From Kiritimatiellia bacterium (GTDB lineage: Bacteria; Verrucomicrobiota; Kiritimatiellia; JAAZAB01): 64,000 nucleotides of DNA. Numbering within the stretch: the first letter of the stretch is position 1; the number at the start of each line of letters is the position of its first letter. The position numbers and the translations under genes are program-made. Below, one piece after another: positions 11,090-64,000 of this stretch. Below the pieces are notes generated by a model that ran no database searches, was not told the origin of the DNA, and was given only the letters and a program-made list of their open reading frames with translations. The stretch is taken from positions 31,212 through 95,211 of the forward strand of contig JBMNRV010000001.1 in assembly GCA_050944835.1 (NCBI GenBank). The letters run 5' to 3'.

Positions 11090-11393
11090 CCTAAAACTGC
11101 GGCAGTTGAAATTCAGGAAACGAGCCCTGAAGGGGCGATATATACCTAGCCCAGGGCGTTGCCCTGGGATTAACGGAAAAATATGAAAACAGCCCTGAAA
11201 GGGCGTGACATAGAAATTCAGGGCAACATCTTGGAATATCGGGGATTGAACACAACTATGTCACGCCCTTTAAGGGCTAATATTGATGGTGTATTGTTTA
11301 CCTAGGGCGTTGCCCTCGGCTGGGTATGTAACGCCCCGTTGGGGCTAATGTCGTACATCTACGACAGACTTGCCAACTGCCGCAGTTTAAGGG
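11090..11393. mobile_element. mosaic intergenic element (hairpin-rich variant) bounded by inverted A-type ends
   Basis: Left end CCTAAAACTGCGGCAGTTG; right end CTTGCCAACTGCCGCAGTTTAAGGG. The interior is made of GCCCTGAAAGGGC and CCAGGGCGTTGCCCTGG hairpins and is repeated in inverted orientation at 32380-32545. Confidence 0.7.
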
Positions 11394-17685: not shown

Positions 17686-18246
17686 CCTAAAACTGTAGCA
17701 GTTGGCAAGTTTGTCGCAGACGGAGGGGAGAACCACGGATGAACACTGATGGACACGGATGGAGGAGGGGGCGAGATAAACCGCCAAGACGCCAAGGTGG
17801 GGAAGAGGAGAATTAACCGCAGATTGCCGCAGATTAACGCAGGTTTTATCGGAGATATAAGATGACTCGAATGGCAGGCCGCGCTGTCCGCTATGCGGAC
17901 ATGGATTGGCGGACACCCAAGATACACGAATGGATTCGCGTATCAGGGTGTCAACCAATCCGCCGGACCGGCAGATGCCGGTCAGCGCGGCGCTTGAGGA
18001 TAATCCTTTCCCTAATCCATGTCTATCAGGTTAATCCGTGGTTCTTCTGCCAGTGCGGCTCGCACCTCCGTGTGAACCTCTCCTCCTCTACGTCTATCGG
18101 CGTCATCTGCGGTTACATTCTTTGTCTGTTTCTTTCCTGGTTTTCTTGGCGTCTTGGCGGTTCAATCCTATCCGTATCCATCCAGTGGTTCCTCTGGTTT
18201 TCAACACTTTATCTCGTTTCCTGAATTTCAAATACCGCTTTTAGGG
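17686..18246. mobile_element. mosaic palindromic intergenic element, full-length copy R-b (A end, D core +, B end)
   Basis: The A end CCTAAAACTGTAGCAGTTGGCAAG is on the left. The B end CAACACTTTATCTCGTTTCCTGAATTTCAAATACCGCTTTTAGGG is on the right. The arms are built of inverted word repeats. Confidence 0.8.
17883..17990 (+). repeat. D module copy 1 (conserved three-hairpin core of the mosaic element)
   Basis: GTCCGC-TAT-GCGGAC; long stem GGATTGG..GACACCC / GGGTGTC..CCAATCC around the palindrome GATACACGAATGGATTCGCGTATC; GACCGGC-AGAT-GCCGGTC. Confidence 0.8.
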
Positions 18247-21930: not shown

Positions 21931-23010
21931 ATGAAAAACCGTAAAACAATTCCTGCACACCTCTCTATCCGTACAACCCTGAAGAAGGAAATTCTGGACG
22001 GAAAACATGCTGAGCTTTCGGAAAGCCGTGTAATACAACGCTTCAAAGTGTCAAGCGCGACAGCCCGGCGGGTGTTGAATGATCTGGCTTTGGAAGGACT
22101 GGTATCGCGTCAGGTCGGTCGCGGCAGTATTGTGCGGCAGCCGCATGATCGGGCGTTTCGAGAATATGGGGCTGTTTTTTTTGATATCTTCGATCTGCGT
22201 GATTTCTTCATTGCTGAGATTGTCCGTGGGATTGAAGAACGGGCCAGCTCGAAAGAACATCAGTTGCATCTGTTCACCACCCGCGGCAAACAATTGGATG
22301 ATACGGGAGCATCTTCCATATCCTATCTCGTTAAAAGCCGTAAGATTCATGGTTTGTTTGTCTTATCGCCGTTAGATGCTGGCGCCATCCAGTTTTTCAT
22401 GGAAGAACGGCTGCCTTGCGTTGCGGTTGGAAATAATTATCCCGGTTTGCAGGTGCCGACAGTTATGGCCGACAACCGCCGGGCGATGCTGGATGTCTGT
22501 CACCGTCTTATGCGGGAAGGATTGCAACGCATCGCAGTTGTTGTGCGGCATAACCCACAGCGGGATGTTGAGCGTGGCTGTGATTTTATCGCGCGTGCAT
22601 ATCATGAATATTATGCCGAGTGCAAACTCCACCCGGAACCGGCCTGGTGGCAAGCCGTAGAAGACGAACGTGAAGCGGCAGTTAGCGCGATGAATGCGAT
22701 GAGCGCATTGCCGGCGGCCCAGCGCCCGCAGGCCGTGGTGGTACATGGGAAAAATTTGTCCACCGGAGTGAACGATTTTTTAACCCGCAGCCGCGATTGG
22801 CAACCAGTTCTGGTGCATTTTACGGATCGGCAGGAACGCGCACTCCGCACAATCACCGCGCCATATCGTAAGGTCGGGCGGATGGCCTTTGATTTGATGG
22901 AAGACATGTTTGCCAACCCAACCCGGCGCACCGCGAACGCGCCAGTGTTATTGCCAATGGATATTCATTGGCCACTAAAAACGGCATTTGAAATTCAGGA
23001 AACGAGATAA
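21931..23010 (+). CDS. transcriptional regulator, GntR-type winged HTH fused to a LacI/periplasmic-binding-like sugar-sensor domain
   Basis: N-terminal VSSATARRVLNDLALEGLVSRQVGRGSIV, followed by a PBP-like domain. The last 12 codons and the stop lie inside repeat R-c. Confidence 0.7.
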   Translation: MKNRKTIPAHLSIRTTLKKEILDGKHAELSESRVIQRFKVSSATARRVLNDLALEGLVSRQVGRGSIVRQPHDRAFREYGAVFFDIFDLRDFFIAEIVRGIEERASSKEHQLHLFTTRGKQLDDTGASSISYLVKSRKIHGLFVLSPLDAGAIQFFMEERLPCVAVGNNYPGLQVPTVMADNRRAMLDVCHRLMREGLQRIAVVVRHNPQRDVERGCDFIARAYHEYYAECKLHPEPAWWQAVEDEREAAVSAMNAMSALPAAQRPQAVVVHGKNLSTGVNDFLTRSRDWQPVLVHFTDRQERALRTITAPYRKVGRMAFDLMEDMFANPTRRTANAPVLLPMDIHWPLKTAFEIQETR

Positions 23011-23290
23011 AGTGTTGAGAACCGCAGATTACGCAGATTGGCGCAGATTGGGCGAGGGATACTCGTAGAAGAAGAACCACGGATGAACACTGATGGACAC
23101 TGATCACTGATGAAGGAGTGGAAGGGGTGCCCTGAAAGGGCATGACATACCCAGCTTGTGCGGCTCGCACCGCCAGTGCGGCTCGCACCGCCAGTGCGGC
23201 TCGCACTTACTGCCGTCCCTTCCGTCCCTGCTGTCCCTTCCGCCCCCTTCGCCAGTCCCCGATCAAACCCGCTTGGACTGGCCTTTCAGG
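22975..23290. repeat. mosaic element fragment R-c (B end plus arm words, no D core)
   Basis: CTAAAAACGGCATTTGAAATTCAGGAAACGAGATAAAGTGTTG, CCGCAGATTACGCAGATTGGCGCAGATTG, GAACCACGGATGAACACTGATGGACACTGAT. Confidence 0.8.
23158..23206. repeat. 18-bp tandem repeat (2.7 units), each unit containing a hairpin
   Basis: GTGCGGCTCGCACCGCCA x2 plus GTGCGGCTCGCAC. Single copies of GTGCGGCTCGCAC, or its complement, occur at about 18054 and 47089. Confidence 0.9.
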
Positions 23291-27566: not shown

Positions 27567-27635
27567 GGACTTTCCCCAAAAATTCTGTCATTCCATAAAG
27601 ATCAGTCCGAGCGGGTTAAATTCGGGGTCTGGCGG
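27567..27635. repeat. short repeat module also present in the mosaic-element blocks outside the island
   Basis: GGACTTTCCCCAAAAATTCTGTCATTCCATAAAGATCAGTCCGAGCGGGTTAAATTCGGGGTCTGGCGG. Related copies occur in the opposite orientation at 32550-32610 and 47571-47639; partial copies are at 32140-32190 and 57447-57495. Confidence 0.8.
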
Positions 27636-31870: not shown

Positions 31871-32205
31871 TAAAAACAGTGCGTGGAAACGGCGGACAGC
31901 CGGGATAAACCGGAAGCAGACCGATTGTGGCAGTGCGGATGTTGGCATGGGCGCTCCGTAGTATGCCACGAAAGCTGCGGAGACAGCATCCACGCCAACC
32001 GCCCGCTTGCGGTCCCGCTCCAGCAGAGAGTGTGCCGGAAGACCGTCCCCCCACTGCCTCCGTCGTTGACGGGCCGCTACGAGATGCGGCTAAAAGATGA
32101 ATTGGGCGTTGTGGCGCCGACGTACGCAGCGCCAAGCCGCGCGGACTGGCCTTTGATTAATCGCCAGATTTTTGGGGAAAGTCCACACGCAAATACCAGG
32201 ACATC

Positions 32206-32258: not shown

Positions 32259-32610
32259 CCTAAAACTGCGGCAGTTGGCAAGTTTGTCGCAGATGCGCGG
32301 CGCGACAGAGGGGAGAACCACGGATGAACACGGATTAACACGGATGGTCTCACGGAGGAGGAGAACCGATAGACGTAGATGGTGAAGGGTAGCCCTTTAT
32401 AAGGGCGTAACATAGTTGTGTTCAATCCCCGATATCCCAAGACGTTGCCCTGAATTTCTATGTCACGCCCTTTCAGGGCTGTTTTCATGTTTTCCCGTTA
32501 ATCCCAGGGCGTTGCCCTAGGCTGGGTATGTCATGCCCTTTCAGGTCCCCGCCAGACCCCGAATTTAACCCGCGCGGACTGGTTTTTGATTAATGGCCGG
32601 ATTTTTTGAC
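32259..32610. repeat. mosaic element block R-d (A end, arm words, then an inverted copy of the 11.1-11.3 kb hairpin block)
   Basis: CCTAAAACTGCGGCAGTTGGCAAGTTTGTCGCAGATGCGCGG, GAACCACGGATGAACACGGATTAACACGGATGG, GCCCTTTCAGGGC hairpins. Confidence 0.8.
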
Positions 32611-32634
32611 AAAATTCTCTCGCGTAAATATCAC
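32606..32634 (+). promoter_or_regulatory. candidate sigma70-type promoter upstream of clpB
   Basis: TTGACA, 17 nt, TATCAC. A CTTGAAA element follows at 32634-32640. Confidence 0.3.
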
Positions 32635-43031: not shown

Positions 43032-43112
43032 CCTAAAACTGCGGCAGTTGGCAAGTTTGTCGCAGATGCGCGGCATTAGCCCCAACGGGGCGTGACATAC
43101 CCCGTTGGGGCT
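43032..43112. repeat. mosaic element fragment R-e (A end) ending in a perfect 13-bp hairpin
   Basis: CCTAAAACTGCGGCAGTTGGCAAGTTTGTCGCAGATGCGCGG, then AGCCCCAACGGGG-CGTGACATA-CCCCGTTGGGGCT (43078-43112). Confidence 0.85.
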
Positions 43113-43128
43113 AGTTCAATCGCACCAC

Positions 43129-43317
43129 AAACGTGTCATAAACGTATCAATCGTATCATAAACGCGCCATAAACGTATCATAAACGTGTCATAAACGTAT
43201 CAAACGTATCATAAACGTATCATAAACGCGTCATAAACGTATCAAACGTATCATAAACGTATCATAAACGCGTCATAAACGTATCAAACGTATCATAAAC
43301 GTATCATAAACGCATCA
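43129..43317. repeat. 10/11-bp tandem array (about 18 units) with a 42-bp higher-order period
   Basis: The units are variants of AAACGTATCAT / AAACGCGTCAT / AAACGTATCA. The block AAACGTATCA-AACGTATCAT-AAACGTATCAT-AAACGCGTCAT repeats about 3 times. Confidence 0.95.
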
Positions 43318-43909: not shown

Positions 43910-43915
43910 GGCTGA

Positions 43916-44130
43916 GGGAAGAACCACGGATAGACACGGATGGACACTGATGTGTTGGAAAAAGGAAAGGCGATAGCAAAAGAAGATGTTTATAGAGCAG
44001 GGTGTCAACCGATCCGCCAGACTGGCAGATGCTGGTTAGCGTGGCGTAAGTTATGCAATCTGAAAATCTTGCTTCTTCCTGGCTCCGTGTTTGTCCGTGT
44101 TCTGGTTCCTCTTGTTCTCAACATTTAATC
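43916..44130. repeat. mosaic element fragment R-f (arm words plus right half of the D core)
   Basis: GAACCACGGATAGACACGGATGGACACTGATG; half D core at 43999-44047 (AGGGTGTCAACCGATCCGCCAGACTGGCAGATGCTGGTTAGCG). Confidence 0.75.
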
Positions 44131-46883: not shown

Positions 46884-47496
46884 TCTAAAACTGCGACAGT
46901 TGGCAAGTTTGTAGCAGATGCGCGGCACGACGGAGGGGAGAACCACGGATGAACACTGATTAACACTGATGGTCGCACGGAGGAGGAGAACCGGTTGACG
47001 CAGATGGTGAAAGGGAGCCCTTGTAAGGGCGTGACAGAGGCAGTGAGGAACACGGATTAGTACACGAAGGGGCGGAGAACACGGAGGTGCGAGCCGCACT
47101 GGCAAGGACGGAAAGAAATTAGCCACAAAAATGCACACAATGCACACAAAGAAAAAGCTACAGAAAAAGAGAAAGTTTGTTGGGCTGGAGTGGCAGGCTG
47201 CGCTGTCCGCTATGCGGACATGGATCAGTGGACACCCGGATACACGAATTAATTCGCGTATAAGGGTGTCAGCCGATCCGCCAGACCGGCAAATGCCGGT
47301 CAGCGCAGCATGCGTTCGTGTTCTGAAAAAACTTGTGAATCTTGGTGCTAATTATCCGGGATCTGCGTCAATCTGCGGTTTCTTTCTTGGCGTCCTTGGC
47401 GGTTCAATCTTATCAGTGTCCATCCATGTTCATCCGTGGTTCCTCTGGGCCTCAACATTTTATCTCGTTTCCTGAATTTCAAATGCCGTTTTTAGG
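46884..47496. mobile_element. mosaic palindromic element, full-length copy R-g (A end, D core +, B end)
   Basis: TCTAAAACTGCGACAGTTGGCAAG ... CAACATTTTATCTCGTTTCCTGAATTTCAAATGCCGTTTTTAGG. Confidence 0.8.
47202..47315 (+). repeat. D module copy 2
   Basis: GCTGTCCGCTATGCGGACATGGATCAGTGGACACCCGGATACACGAATTAATTCGCGTATAAGGGTGTCAGCCGATCCGCCAGACCGGCAAATGCCGGTCAGCGCAGCATGCGT. Confidence 0.85.
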
Positions 47497-47570
47497 TGAG
47501 CCTTTTACGGGTATGCCTGAAAGTGGAAAAGTGGTTTTCTGAATTAGCCCACAACGCCCTTTCAGGGCAA

Positions 47571-47639
47571 CGCCAGACCCGAATTTAATCCGCTCGGTCT
47601 GATTTTTATGGAATGACAGAATTTTTTAGAAAAGTCCGC
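47571..47639. repeat. short repeat module (same family as 27567-27635, opposite orientation)
   Basis: CGCCAGACCCGAATTTAATCCGCTCGGTCTGATTTTTATGGAATGACAGAATTTTTTAGAAAAGTCCGC. Confidence 0.8.
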
Positions 47640-49665: not shown

Positions 49666-49721
49666 ACATCCAGAAGGCATATCCTATCACTACATGGTAA
49701 TCCGGTCAACGGCGAAAACGC

Positions 49722-50311
49722 CCTAAAACGGCATTTGAAATTCAGGAAACGAGATAAAGTGTTGGAACCGCAGATTTACGCAGATTGGCGCAGATTGTGA
49801 GAGGGATACGCGGAGAAGAGGAACTACGGATGTACACGGATGTAGGAAATGAAACCGCAGATGAACGCAGATTGACGCAGATGAGGATGGAAAGAACCAC
49901 GGATTCACACGGATGGACACGGATTAGGGAAAAGATCATCTATAAATGCCACGCTGTCCGCTATGCGGGCTTGGATCGGTGGACACCCGGATACACGAAT
50001 GAATTCGCGTATCAGGGTGTCAGCCGATCCGTCAGACCGGCAGATGCCGGTCTGCGCAGCATGCGTGGTTAATCCATTTCCTAATACGTATCTACTATCC
50101 ATCCAGTTCTTTCCTCCGTGTTCTCTGCGTCTCCGTGTGAGCTTCTCCGCCTCTGCGTCCATCTGCGTAATCTGCGGTTTTATTCTTCGTCTGTTTTTTG
50201 GCATTCTTGGGCAGTTTAAACCAAATCCGTGTTAATCCGTGTTCATCCGTGGTTCTCCCCTCCGTCGCGCCGCGCATCTGCGACAAACTTGCCAACTGCC
50301 GCAGTTTTAGG
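49722..50311. mobile_element. mosaic palindromic element, full-length copy R-h (B end left, D core +, A end right)
   Basis: CCTAAAACGGCATTTGAAATTCAGGAAACGAGATAAAGTGTTGG ... GCGCATCTGCGACAAACTTGCCAACTGCCGCAGTTTTAGG. Confidence 0.8.
49953..50066 (+). repeat. D module copy 3
   Basis: Has the same three hairpins; the third stem is extended to 9 bp (CAGACCGGC-AGAT-GCCGGTCTG). Confidence 0.85.
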
Positions 50312-55640: not shown

Positions 55641-56208
55641 TGTGTTTGGCGCAGATTCACGGCATCATACTGGGGGGAGAACCACGGATGGACACGGATG
55701 AACACTGATAACGGAGAGAGGAACCGCCAAGACGCCAAAAACGCCAAGGGGGGAGGAAAACGAAACAGAGATCTCACGCAGAGGCGCGGAGACGCAGAGA
55801 AGAGGTGCCGCAGATGGTCGCAGATTAACGCAGATTTTACCAGAGATACTGGCTGACTAAAATGGCATGTCGCGCTGTCCGCTATGCGGACATGGATCGG
55901 CGGATACCCGGATACACGAATTAATTCGCGTATCAGGGTATCAACCGATCCGCCAGACCGGCAGATGCCGGTCAGCACAGCATGCGTTAATCTGAAAATC
56001 TTGTGGCTACCCTCTTTCCAGTCTTCCCCTCTTGTGCTAATTCTGTTCCCTAAATTTCCTCCTCCGTGATCTCCGTGTCTCCGTGTGAGACTCTCTGGTT
56101 CATCATCAGTGTCCATCAGTGTTCATCCGTGGTTCCTTTCCTGTATTTGTGGTTTCATTTTATCTCGTTTCCATTTTTAGGGTAAACTTGCCAATTGCCG
56201 AATATAGG
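55641..56208. mobile_element. mosaic palindromic element R-i (degenerate left end, D core +, B end, extra inverted A-end fragment)
   Basis: GAACCACGGATGGACACGGATGAACACTGAT, CCGCCAAGACGCCAAAAACGCCAAGG ... CATTTTATCTCGTTTCCATTTTTAGGG TAAACTTGCCAATTGCCGAATATAGG. Confidence 0.75.
55874..55987 (+). repeat. D module copy 4
   Basis: The stem pair GATACCC / GGGTATC replaces GACACCC / GGGTGTC (a double, pairing-preserving change). Confidence 0.85.
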
Positions 56209-61578: not shown

Positions 61579-62158
61579 CCTAAAACTGCGGCAGTTGGCA
61601 AAACAGAGGTTTAGCCACAAAAAGGCAAGAAGCACAAGGAGGAAGGACGGAGGAATTGAACCGCCAAGAACGCCAAGAAAGAAACAGACAAGAATGAAAC
61701 CGCAGATAGGCGCAGATTGACGCAGAGGCGGGGAAGCTCACACGGAGACGCAGAGAACACGGAGGAAAGAACCGGATGGAAAGTAGATACGTATTAGGAA
61801 ATGGATTAACCACGCCTGCCGCGCTGACCGGCATCTGCCGGTCTGACGGATCGGCTGACACCCTGATACGCGAATTCATTCGTGTATCCGGGTGTCCACC
61901 GATCCATGTCCGCATAGCGGACAGCGTGGCATTTATAGATGATCTTTTCCCTAATTCGTGTCTATCCTCTCCATGATCTCTGTGTTGTCATCCTATTCCG
62001 TCCACCCTTAGCGTTCTTGGCGCCTTGGCGGTTCAATCCTATTAGTGTCCATCCGGTTCCTCTTCTCCGAGTATCCCTCTCCCAATCTGTGCCAATCTGC
62101 GTAAATCTGTGGTTCCACCGTTTTATCTCGTTTCCTGAATTTCAAATGCCGTTTTAAG
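61579..62158. mobile_element. mosaic palindromic element, full-length copy R-j (A end, D core -, B end)
   Basis: CCTAAAACTGCGGCAGTTGGCAAAAC ... CCACCGTTTTATCTCGTTTCCTGAATTTCAAATGCCGTTTTAAG. Confidence 0.8.
61812..61925 (-). repeat. D module copy 5 (reverse orientation)
   Basis: The reverse complement matches copy 3 almost exactly, including the flanks TTAGGGAAAAGATCATCTATAAATGCCAC and GGTTAATCCATTTCCTAATACGTATCTAC. Confidence 0.85.
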
Positions 62159-63956: not shown

Positions 63957-64000
63957 CTTAAAAAAACGGCAGTTGGTAAGTTTGTCGTGGATACGGCGGG
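63957..64000. repeat. start of another mosaic element (A-type end), truncated by the window edge
   Basis: CTTAAAAAAACGGCAGTTGGTAAGTTTGTCGTGGATACGGCGGG resembles CCTAAAACTGCGGCAGTTGGCAAGTTTGTCGCAGATGCGCGG. Confidence 0.6.

Follow-up and report, generated by a model that had tools for sequence, protein, structure and literature searches.

The intergenic repeat blocks of this Kiritimatiellia genome are best read, with a probability of about three in four, as non-coding MITEs bounded by an A end and a B end, which act as the left and right ends do in IS1380-family insertion sequences (ISs). The blocks are heavily amplified and recombined here and are unusual in their abundance and in the hairpin core that they share. 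Two oddities remain, namely arms made of word arrays with a strict purine/pyrimidine polarity, and a centre common to MITEs with different ends. The window, by which we mean the whole stretch of 64,000 nucleotides that was analysed, belongs to an assembly (G000) of 2.62 Mb in 94 contigs with 53.8% G+C.

Extent, ends and insertion footprints of the family

A sequence-only reading of the window had described a very dense, intergenic, mosaic and non-coding family, its blocks built from one shared vocabulary and its two ends related yet distinct, and our census bears this description out. Self-BLAST of the element at 17686-18246 matched every listed block, piecewise and in both orientations. The merged matches in the window (11090-11393, 17686-18246, 22975-23290, 32259-32617, 43032-43113, 43912-44130, 46884-47639, 49721-50311, 55641-56208, 61579-62158 and 63959 onwards) amounted to 4487 bp or 7.0%, in agreement with the earlier tally of 4.3 kb and about 7%, and two small extra repeat matches were found at 27567-27635 and 32134-32173. 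Divergent, convergent and tandem gaps had all been said to be occupied, and at least 100 nt of repeat was indeed present in 18%, 11% and 13% of them, respectively. Genome-wide, merged BLAST matches reported about 501 loci spanning about 88 kb, or 3.4% of the assembly. By a crude ORF-based gene map the family makes up about 27% of the assembly's intergenic DNA, and about 90% of the repeat bases lie outside long ORFs. No transposase had been noticed, and none was found in the 64-kb window; ORFs inside the elements matched no Pfam family. Rfam searches at gathering and permissive thresholds (E up to 10) returned nothing relevant in the window, the element or the 235-nt form described below, the only matches in the window being two tRNA-Pro genes. 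A promoter and terminator scan gave nothing above shuffles within the element at 17686-18246, and the likely promoters of both genes flanking it sit outside the element.

Table 1. Parts of the reference element (17686-18246) and the other repeat copies in the window.
Feature	Position	Strand	Remarks
Full-length element, A end to B end, 561 bp	17686-18246	+	Centre in + orientation; flanks TCTGT / GATGA, without intact duplication
A end (CCTAAAACTGTAGCAGTTGGCAAGTTTGTCGCAG...), terminal inverted repeat	17686-17727	+	Conservation begins exactly at CC
Purine-rich 5′ arm of word arrays	17728-17877	+	Every array opens with AACC
Word 1, decamer RRACACGGAT, three times	17729-17762	+	In 5′ arm
Word 2, CGCCAAGR, twice	17779-17797	+	In 5′ arm
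Word 3, CGCAGATTNN, three times	17814-17843	+	In 5′ arm
Centre, ~114-nt palindromic module	17878-17991		Four helices: P1 closing stem, P2, long P3, P4; two conserved mismatch positions
Pyrimidine-rich 3′ arm	17992-18203	+	Reverse complements of words 1, 3, 2, 1, plus GTGCGGCTCGCAC hairpin
B end, reverse complement of CCCTAAAAGCGGTATTTGAAATTCAGGAAACGAGATAAAGTGTTG	18204-18246	-	
303-bp element, hybrid B-like end and A end	11090-11393		Encloses different vocabulary (GCCCTGAAAGGGC-type palindromes)
Solo B end, word 3 and word 1 arrays	22975-23290		Followed by 18-nt tandem GTGCGGCTCGCACCGCCA array and terminator-like repeat
Solo A end with word 1	32259-32617		Followed by other palindromic repeats and terminator-like repeat
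Solo A end	43032-43113		Followed by GCCCCAACGGGGC hairpin repeat
Fragment: word 1, 3′ half of centre, pyrimidine arm	43912-44130		
Full element, A to B, 613 bp	46884-47496	+	Centre in + orientation
Terminator-like repeat module, CCAGACC...GGTCTG then T run	47571-47639		Separate module; also at ~32545-32590 and 23250-23290
Full element, B to A on + strand, 590 bp	49722-50311	-	
Centre-bearing element, degenerate ends	55641-56208		A-like end (AACCTATATTCGGCAATTGGCAAG) nested at right side
Full element, A to B, 580 bp	61579-62158	+	Centre in opposite (-) orientation
Start of further element, A-like end	63957-64000		Continues ~310 bp past the window

Relative to the reference element, the centre is inverted in the copy at 61579-62158 together with about 160 nt of arm, which may reflect a flip via recombination between the inverted arms. 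The terminator-like module (CCAGACC, loop, GGTCTG, T run) often adjoins mosaic blocks. Directly after the solo A end and hairpin at 43032-43113 lies an array of about 18 tandem units of AAACGTATCAT (43129-43317), with a 10/11-nt period and a 42-nt higher-order unit.

The quoted ends and the three words proved strongly over-represented genome-wide, with 225 A/B ends, 78 occurrences of GCCAAGACGCCAAG and 115 of CACGGATGAAC. The A end reads CCTAAAACTGCGGCAGTTGGCAAG... and the B end CCTAAAACGGCATTTGAAATTCAGG...; both start with CCTAAAAC, and the core common to them is CCTAAAAC..GGCA.TTG. When A ends (n=85) and B ends (n=130) were aligned with their flanks, base conservation rose from about 0.33 to 0.78-0.85 exactly at the CC of CCTAAAAC. 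Adjacent inward-facing ends paired A with B in 55 of 69 cases, and the paired-end elements measured about 110-635 bp, with peaks at 100-300 bp and 400-600 bp.

The impression that target-site duplications (TSDs) were absent holds for the five full copies in the window, which happen to lack an intact duplication, but not for the family genome-wide. An exact 5-bp TSD flanked 12 of 45 pairs, compared with 0.26 expected from shuffled partners, and the 5-bp flanks agreed at four or more of the five positions in 19 of the 45 (1.6 expected). No comparable excess was obtained at other lengths, where exact duplications numbered 2, 1, 1, 0, 0 and 0 for k = 3, 4, 6, 7, 8 and 9. With a 1-nt shift allowed at either terminus, exact TSDs rose to 19/45 (1.0 expected), and six of the 20 elements of at least 380 bp carried one. 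A recognisable TSD is kept in only 27-42% of the copies.

Nested insertions provided paralogous empty sites. Three insertions in the P4 loop of the centre have flanks that join gap-free to 33-42 other centres, and the empty sites are restored only when the element is removed together with exactly 5 bp (GATGC). Other nested loci were mixed: C46:2882 fits 5 or 6 bp, C44:15719 3 or 5, and C7:39468 3-4. Logan contigs from eight DNA runs broke inside every element and gave no clean empty-site skip or presence/absence polymorphism. The same 235/252-nt MITE occupies the identical P4-loop position three times (C6:76768-77019, C6:84867-85101 and C19:14305-14541; TSD GATGC), so that either this position is a hotspot for insertion or a composite, once nested, has spread.

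The proposal that these elements go beyond a typical MITE was not upheld, as the census gave sharp terminal inverted repeats, 5-bp TSDs, paralogous empty sites and a terminus identical to that of an IS1380-family clade. The elements are short (<~0.7 kb) and non-coding, with defined terminal inverted repeats, a TSD of fixed length and many dispersed copies; an autonomous IS with the same ends was not found. Of what the sequence-only reading had named as pointing to ordinary MITEs of a known IS family, the duplications and the signature of a known family are thus present, but no transposase gene with A/B ends was found.

The short forms, at about 155 and 235 bp, consist of little beyond the two ends with inner inverted copies. 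Two foldbacks make up the 235-nt form: in one the A end is followed by its own inner inverted copy, and in the other an inner inverted B copy is followed by the B end. The copies of this form in G002-G004 and in one MAG with the label 'Lentisphaerae' are conserved at about 85-90% identity, and their tips read CCTATATCC... (L054:3122-3355 and L038-L045; in G000, for example, C25:13630-13864). The inner hairpin of the 235-nt form shows a compensatory change from GCGAAGGAT/ATCCTTCGC to GCAAGGGT/ACCCTTGC, and G-U and A-C cells on the A-to-B strand stand at 47:10, with no Rfam match.

Gene-bearing stretches between two B ends, a restriction-modification pair and others, were considered as composite transposons and rejected, as they lack TSDs. 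At C9:60065-62861, what we take to be a cytosine-methyltransferase gene and a neighbouring ORF, presumably a restriction enzyme, lie between two inward-facing B ends without a TSD, so this stretch is probably two separate MITE remnants and not a composite transposon.

Probable link to IS1380-family insertion sequences

To get at the family of the elements, we compared their ends with those of ISs in related genomes and metagenomes. G000, whose assembly is 93% complete and fragmented, gave no match to PF13701 (DDE_Tnp_1_4); its transposase profile matches were two to PF01609 and a weak one to Y1_Tnp. The PF01609 IS on contig C91 (the other PF01609 match is on C70) was rejected as a partner, since it is without A/B ends. 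PF13701 is present in G002 and in three other genomes of the taxonomic family. G002, the best-assembled congener, carries three copies of a 1842-bp IS encoding a 503-aa PF13701 protein (99.7 bits), with ends CCTGATCC... and ...TTATTTTAGG and flanking 6-bp direct repeats. Among 80 metagenomic relatives of this transposase the inferred right ends mostly read CCTAAAACAAGCG..., and in about 30 of the 80 a minus-strand CCTAAAAC follows the ORF at a distance of about 240 nt, as the right-end terminus, compared with a chance expectation for an octamer of about 0.08 per locus.

Identity between the MITE ends and the IS1380 ends is confined to the terminal 8 nt and falls short of the >20 nt by which we would recognise a derivative of the family. 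A/B motifs occurred in none of the 80 metagenomic IS1380 loci nor in the congener loci, CCTAAAAC in none of the IS1380 loci at family level (33 family genomes), and an exact B-end scan of genome contigs returned ten loci, all 235-nt MITEs and no IS. ISEcp1, the member of the IS1380 family that has been studied best, has the left inverted repeat CCTAGATTCTACGT and 5-bp direct repeats (PMC6061673). Of the marks of an IS1380 derivative, the elements thus have the terminus CCTAAAAC and a duplication within 4-5 bp (5 bp, as in ISEcp1), and lack a PF13701 match in G000 and extended end identity. The tip and the footprint length together fit the IS1380 family; as no IS with A/B-type ends beyond the octamer was found, we regard this assignment as probable and not proven.

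The likeness extends to further details. ISEcp1, whose left inverted repeat opens CCTAGATT..., begins with CC and makes 5-bp repeats, as do our elements; CCTAAAAC is the right-end terminus of many members of the G002 IS clade; and beyond the tip the left end no longer resembles the right one, either in the IS1380 elements (ISEcp1 and the G002 IS clade) or here. Unlike those ISs, however, the elements here have no transposase gene, and their end similarity stops after 8 nt. They also differ from the sampled clade in their footprint, as the clade inserts at CTAG-like sites, with 6-bp repeats in G002, whereas we found 5 bp and no such target. In the clade loci (L059-L138; L029, L033, L034) the IS is flanked by CTAGN on its left and NCTAG on its right, and the 6-bp repeats of the G002 copies are ATTAGT, CCTAAT and TATAGT, from which the clade would seem to target CTAG-like sites and to leave a footprint of 6 bp.

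In the mechanism that we propose, a DDE transposase acting in trans, and not found in G000, would recognise the CCTAAAAC... termini and move the whole A...B unit, making a 5-bp staggered cut in the target that leaves the footprint observed. The 0.43-0.63-kb forms are chimeras, with the same ends around a foldback core of purine arm, ~115-nt centre and pyrimidine arm. Mosaicism arises by nested insertion, as seen at the loci above, and would arise also by recombination and slippage between copies, which may swap cores between MITE families and flip the core. The elements build up in intergenic DNA, where they are tolerated.

Arms, centre and competing explanations

The long copies (0.55-0.63 kb) are chimeric, with A/B ends enclosing the purine arm, the centre of about 115 nt and the pyrimidine arm. 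In the arms, word arrays open with AACC and continue in tandem units of 8-11 nt. On either strand the purine fraction is 0.63 in the arm 5′ of the centre and 0.37 in the 3′ arm, and in all of about 460 matches the purine versions of the words preceded the centre and their complements followed it. The claim of whole-element palindromy held in part. The element at 17686-18246 folds far better than its shuffles (z = -8.5 on the + strand and -10.0 on the - strand), and the words do run forward in one arm and reverse-complemented in the other, but the palindromy is not kept element by element. Pairing between the two arms of an element scored 29.9 on average, compared with 41.5 between arms of different elements, and arms are far more similar to the arms of other elements (scores of 63-146). 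A hairpin maintained in each element was therefore rejected; as own arms are not extra complementary, the palindromy is an inherited vocabulary, produced by common words that face forward in the 5′ arm and appear as reverse complements in the 3′ arm, and not compensatory upkeep.

Several observations concern the words themselves. Word 1 fits CANGGANG, yet a role as a CsrA sponge was discarded, as the genome is without CsrA. Word 1 (GAGAACCACGGATGRACRCGGATGGACACGGATGG) is also found as a solitary dispersed intergenic motif, at 90-94% identity, in high-GC genomes of other Kiritimatiellia families (L007, L028 of G021 and L008 of G026). A group II intron family in G000, outside the window (C4, C11:1-430, C31, C35, C47, C53:13.0-14.2 kb, C78 and C90), has the domain V GAGCCGGATGCGGGAAATCTGCATGTCCGGTTC and the maturase motif GWGNYF. 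We could read eight three-prime and nine five-prime junctions, most of them inside word-1 arrays; the sequence is ...CATCCG^intron at seven of the nine five-prime junctions and intron^TG.. at the readable three-prime ones, on the pyrimidine strand. Six copies of the intron end contigs, and one copy of about 0.7 kb has no ORF.

G000 has 88 loci with the centre, which is near-complete in 75. The four-helix fold of the centre pairs 93.4% of cells, compared with 23-38% when the partners are slid, and two-sided changes affect seven pairs and 12 cells, counts reached by 7/500 and 0/500 shuffles, respectively; two positions in the palindrome are conserved mismatches. The fold and its two-sided changes might suggest that the centre or the whole element is a multicopy structured non-coding RNA gene, as might the + strand preferred by RNAalifold (-35 vs -9 kcal/mol) and the short unstranded contigs, with 1-2 mismatches, that two metatranscriptomes provided over 17884-18029. 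We hold this very unlikely. G-U and A-C cells in the centre are equal (143 vs 141) and favour neither strand, so that the pairing belongs to the duplex or to both strands and not to one RNA. Rfam gave no match even with E allowed up to 10, the distribution is restricted to the genus, the centre lies in both orientations relative to ends and genes, copies are broken by MITE insertions, and the depth of the contigs is about that of the flanking genes and not above it, despite about 100 copies. Neither strand-specific pairing nor conservation beyond the mobile family was found, and the RNA of the centre is at most read-through or low-level transcription.

The distribution of the centre raises another alternative, in which the foldback core itself is the primary unit, a hairpin or cruciform cassette that spreads by its own route, with the MITE ends of different families as no more than its carriers; this route could be recombination, an enzyme specific for hairpins, or capture favoured by its help in bringing transposon ends together. 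Among 251 class genomes the centre was found in five, confined to the window's genus, with about 50-115 first-look candidates per genome, and one neighbouring genus. In congeners, centres 85-91% identical lie in elements with different ends (..CATCCCATAGA) and CACAAAG words, flanked by 9-11-bp duplications that we read by eye in three of four loci. The loci of this second family (L010, L013, L015 and L016, in G002-G004) have ends CA(G/C)T(A/G)(G/T)CATCCCATAGA and the duplications CATGAAAAC, GGAACGGTTT and GAAACACGGAT; by its footprint the family is IS4-like. Ends of the CATCCCATAGA kind are present in G000 too, and cores are therefore common to MITE families with unrelated ends. Further in favour of a core cassette, 35 of the 75 centres are more than 450 nt from any canonical A/B end (several of these have degenerate A/B-like or CATCCCATAG-type ends instead), the orientation of the centre relative to A-to-B is 9:7, the polarity of the words around it is invariant, and the two mismatch positions in its palindrome are conserved. 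However, no termini or duplications belonging to the core itself were found around it, whole A...B units including the core carry 5-bp TSDs, the arms are not co-adapted within an element, and the narrow range among the class genomes also speaks against it; we think this explanation unlikely. Mosaics of the REP/BIME kind mobilised by a RAYT are intergenic, palindromic and modular too, and one weak Y1_Tnp-like gene exists at C22:34.6 kb. But REPs are units of 20-40 nt without TSDs, whereas terminal inverted repeats and 5-bp duplications, neither of which HUH/Y1 transposition yields, mark the elements here, and the search for a RAYT gene gave no credible cognate: the match scored 21.7 bits, below the Pfam cut-off of 23, and is single-copy and not flanked by the repeats. 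We consider a RAYT origin most improbable. Tn3-family inverted repeats are about 38 bp long and read GGGG..., and it is scarcely credible that the blocks are miniature elements derived from this family (TIMEs), as their termini start with CCTAAAAC, are common to both ends over about 16 nt only, and match IS1380 right ends in the octamer. Only the 5-bp TSD agrees; mosaic TIMEs are, on the other hand, documented (PMC4133298).

The ORF behind the weak Y1 match (C22 ~34.0-35.2 kb; L048:970-2088, minus strand) encodes 372 aa; its N-terminal half is IS200/RAYT-like (HUH motif NHVHGLI; 21.7 bits), and its C-terminal half we presume, by eye, to be DprA-like. A short duplicated repeat lies within the ORF as an in-frame interruption, and a degenerate A-like end lies just upstream.

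Comparison with known repeats and meaning of the family

Foldback (FB) transposons of Drosophila have long inverted arms, with short tandem repeats of variable number, and a central loop. The elements here resemble them, by analogy only, in having repeat-built inverted arms around a centre, but FB elements are eukaryotic and unrelated in sequence, and their arms themselves form the termini, a role that here falls to the defined A/B ends on either side of the arms. With the hairpin MITEs of bacteria (Correia/NEMIS, ERIC, RUP, Nezha and the Microcystis MaeMITEs) they share short length, non-coding content, intergenic position, multiple copies, terminal inverted repeats, TSDs and the ability to fold back; they differ in reaching 0.63 kb and in their word-array arms, strict polarity and a centre common to MITE families. 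In Microcystis, MITEs at 1.8% of the genome were called 'extremely high' (PMC2779907), compared with 3.4% here. The TIME mosaics and the minisatellite MITE of P. gingivalis are likewise chimeric or contain internal tandem repeats (PMC4133298, PMC4596501), but they belong to other IS families with other ends, and their abstracts describe no shared palindromic centre. IS1380 goes unmentioned in a 2024 review of prokaryotic MITEs, and the family reported here, with its IS1380-type ends, appears not to have been described before.

It is conceivable, though we hold it doubtful, that the core is a structured cassette that moves between unrelated MITE families (the IS1380-type with 5-bp TSDs and the CA..CATCCCATAGA type with 9-11-bp ones) and is kept because its hairpin or cruciform aids transposition, the word arrays serving also as a homing site for the group II intron. 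If this is true, the core would be cargo that parasitises or boosts MITEs, by bringing the two ends together or serving as a recognition platform.

On the reading of the blocks as MITEs with IS1380-type ends, about a quarter of the intergenic DNA is accounted for in an abundant, uncultured Kiritimatiellia lineage of digesters and wastewater, and the abundance of the elements explains the fragmentation of the lineage's assemblies. In annotation, the blocks should be masked and taken neither for regulatory RNAs nor for ORFs. The family also offers clean natural examples of modules swapped between MITE families and of parasitism in layers, with MITE inserted in MITE and a group II intron in MITE word arrays.
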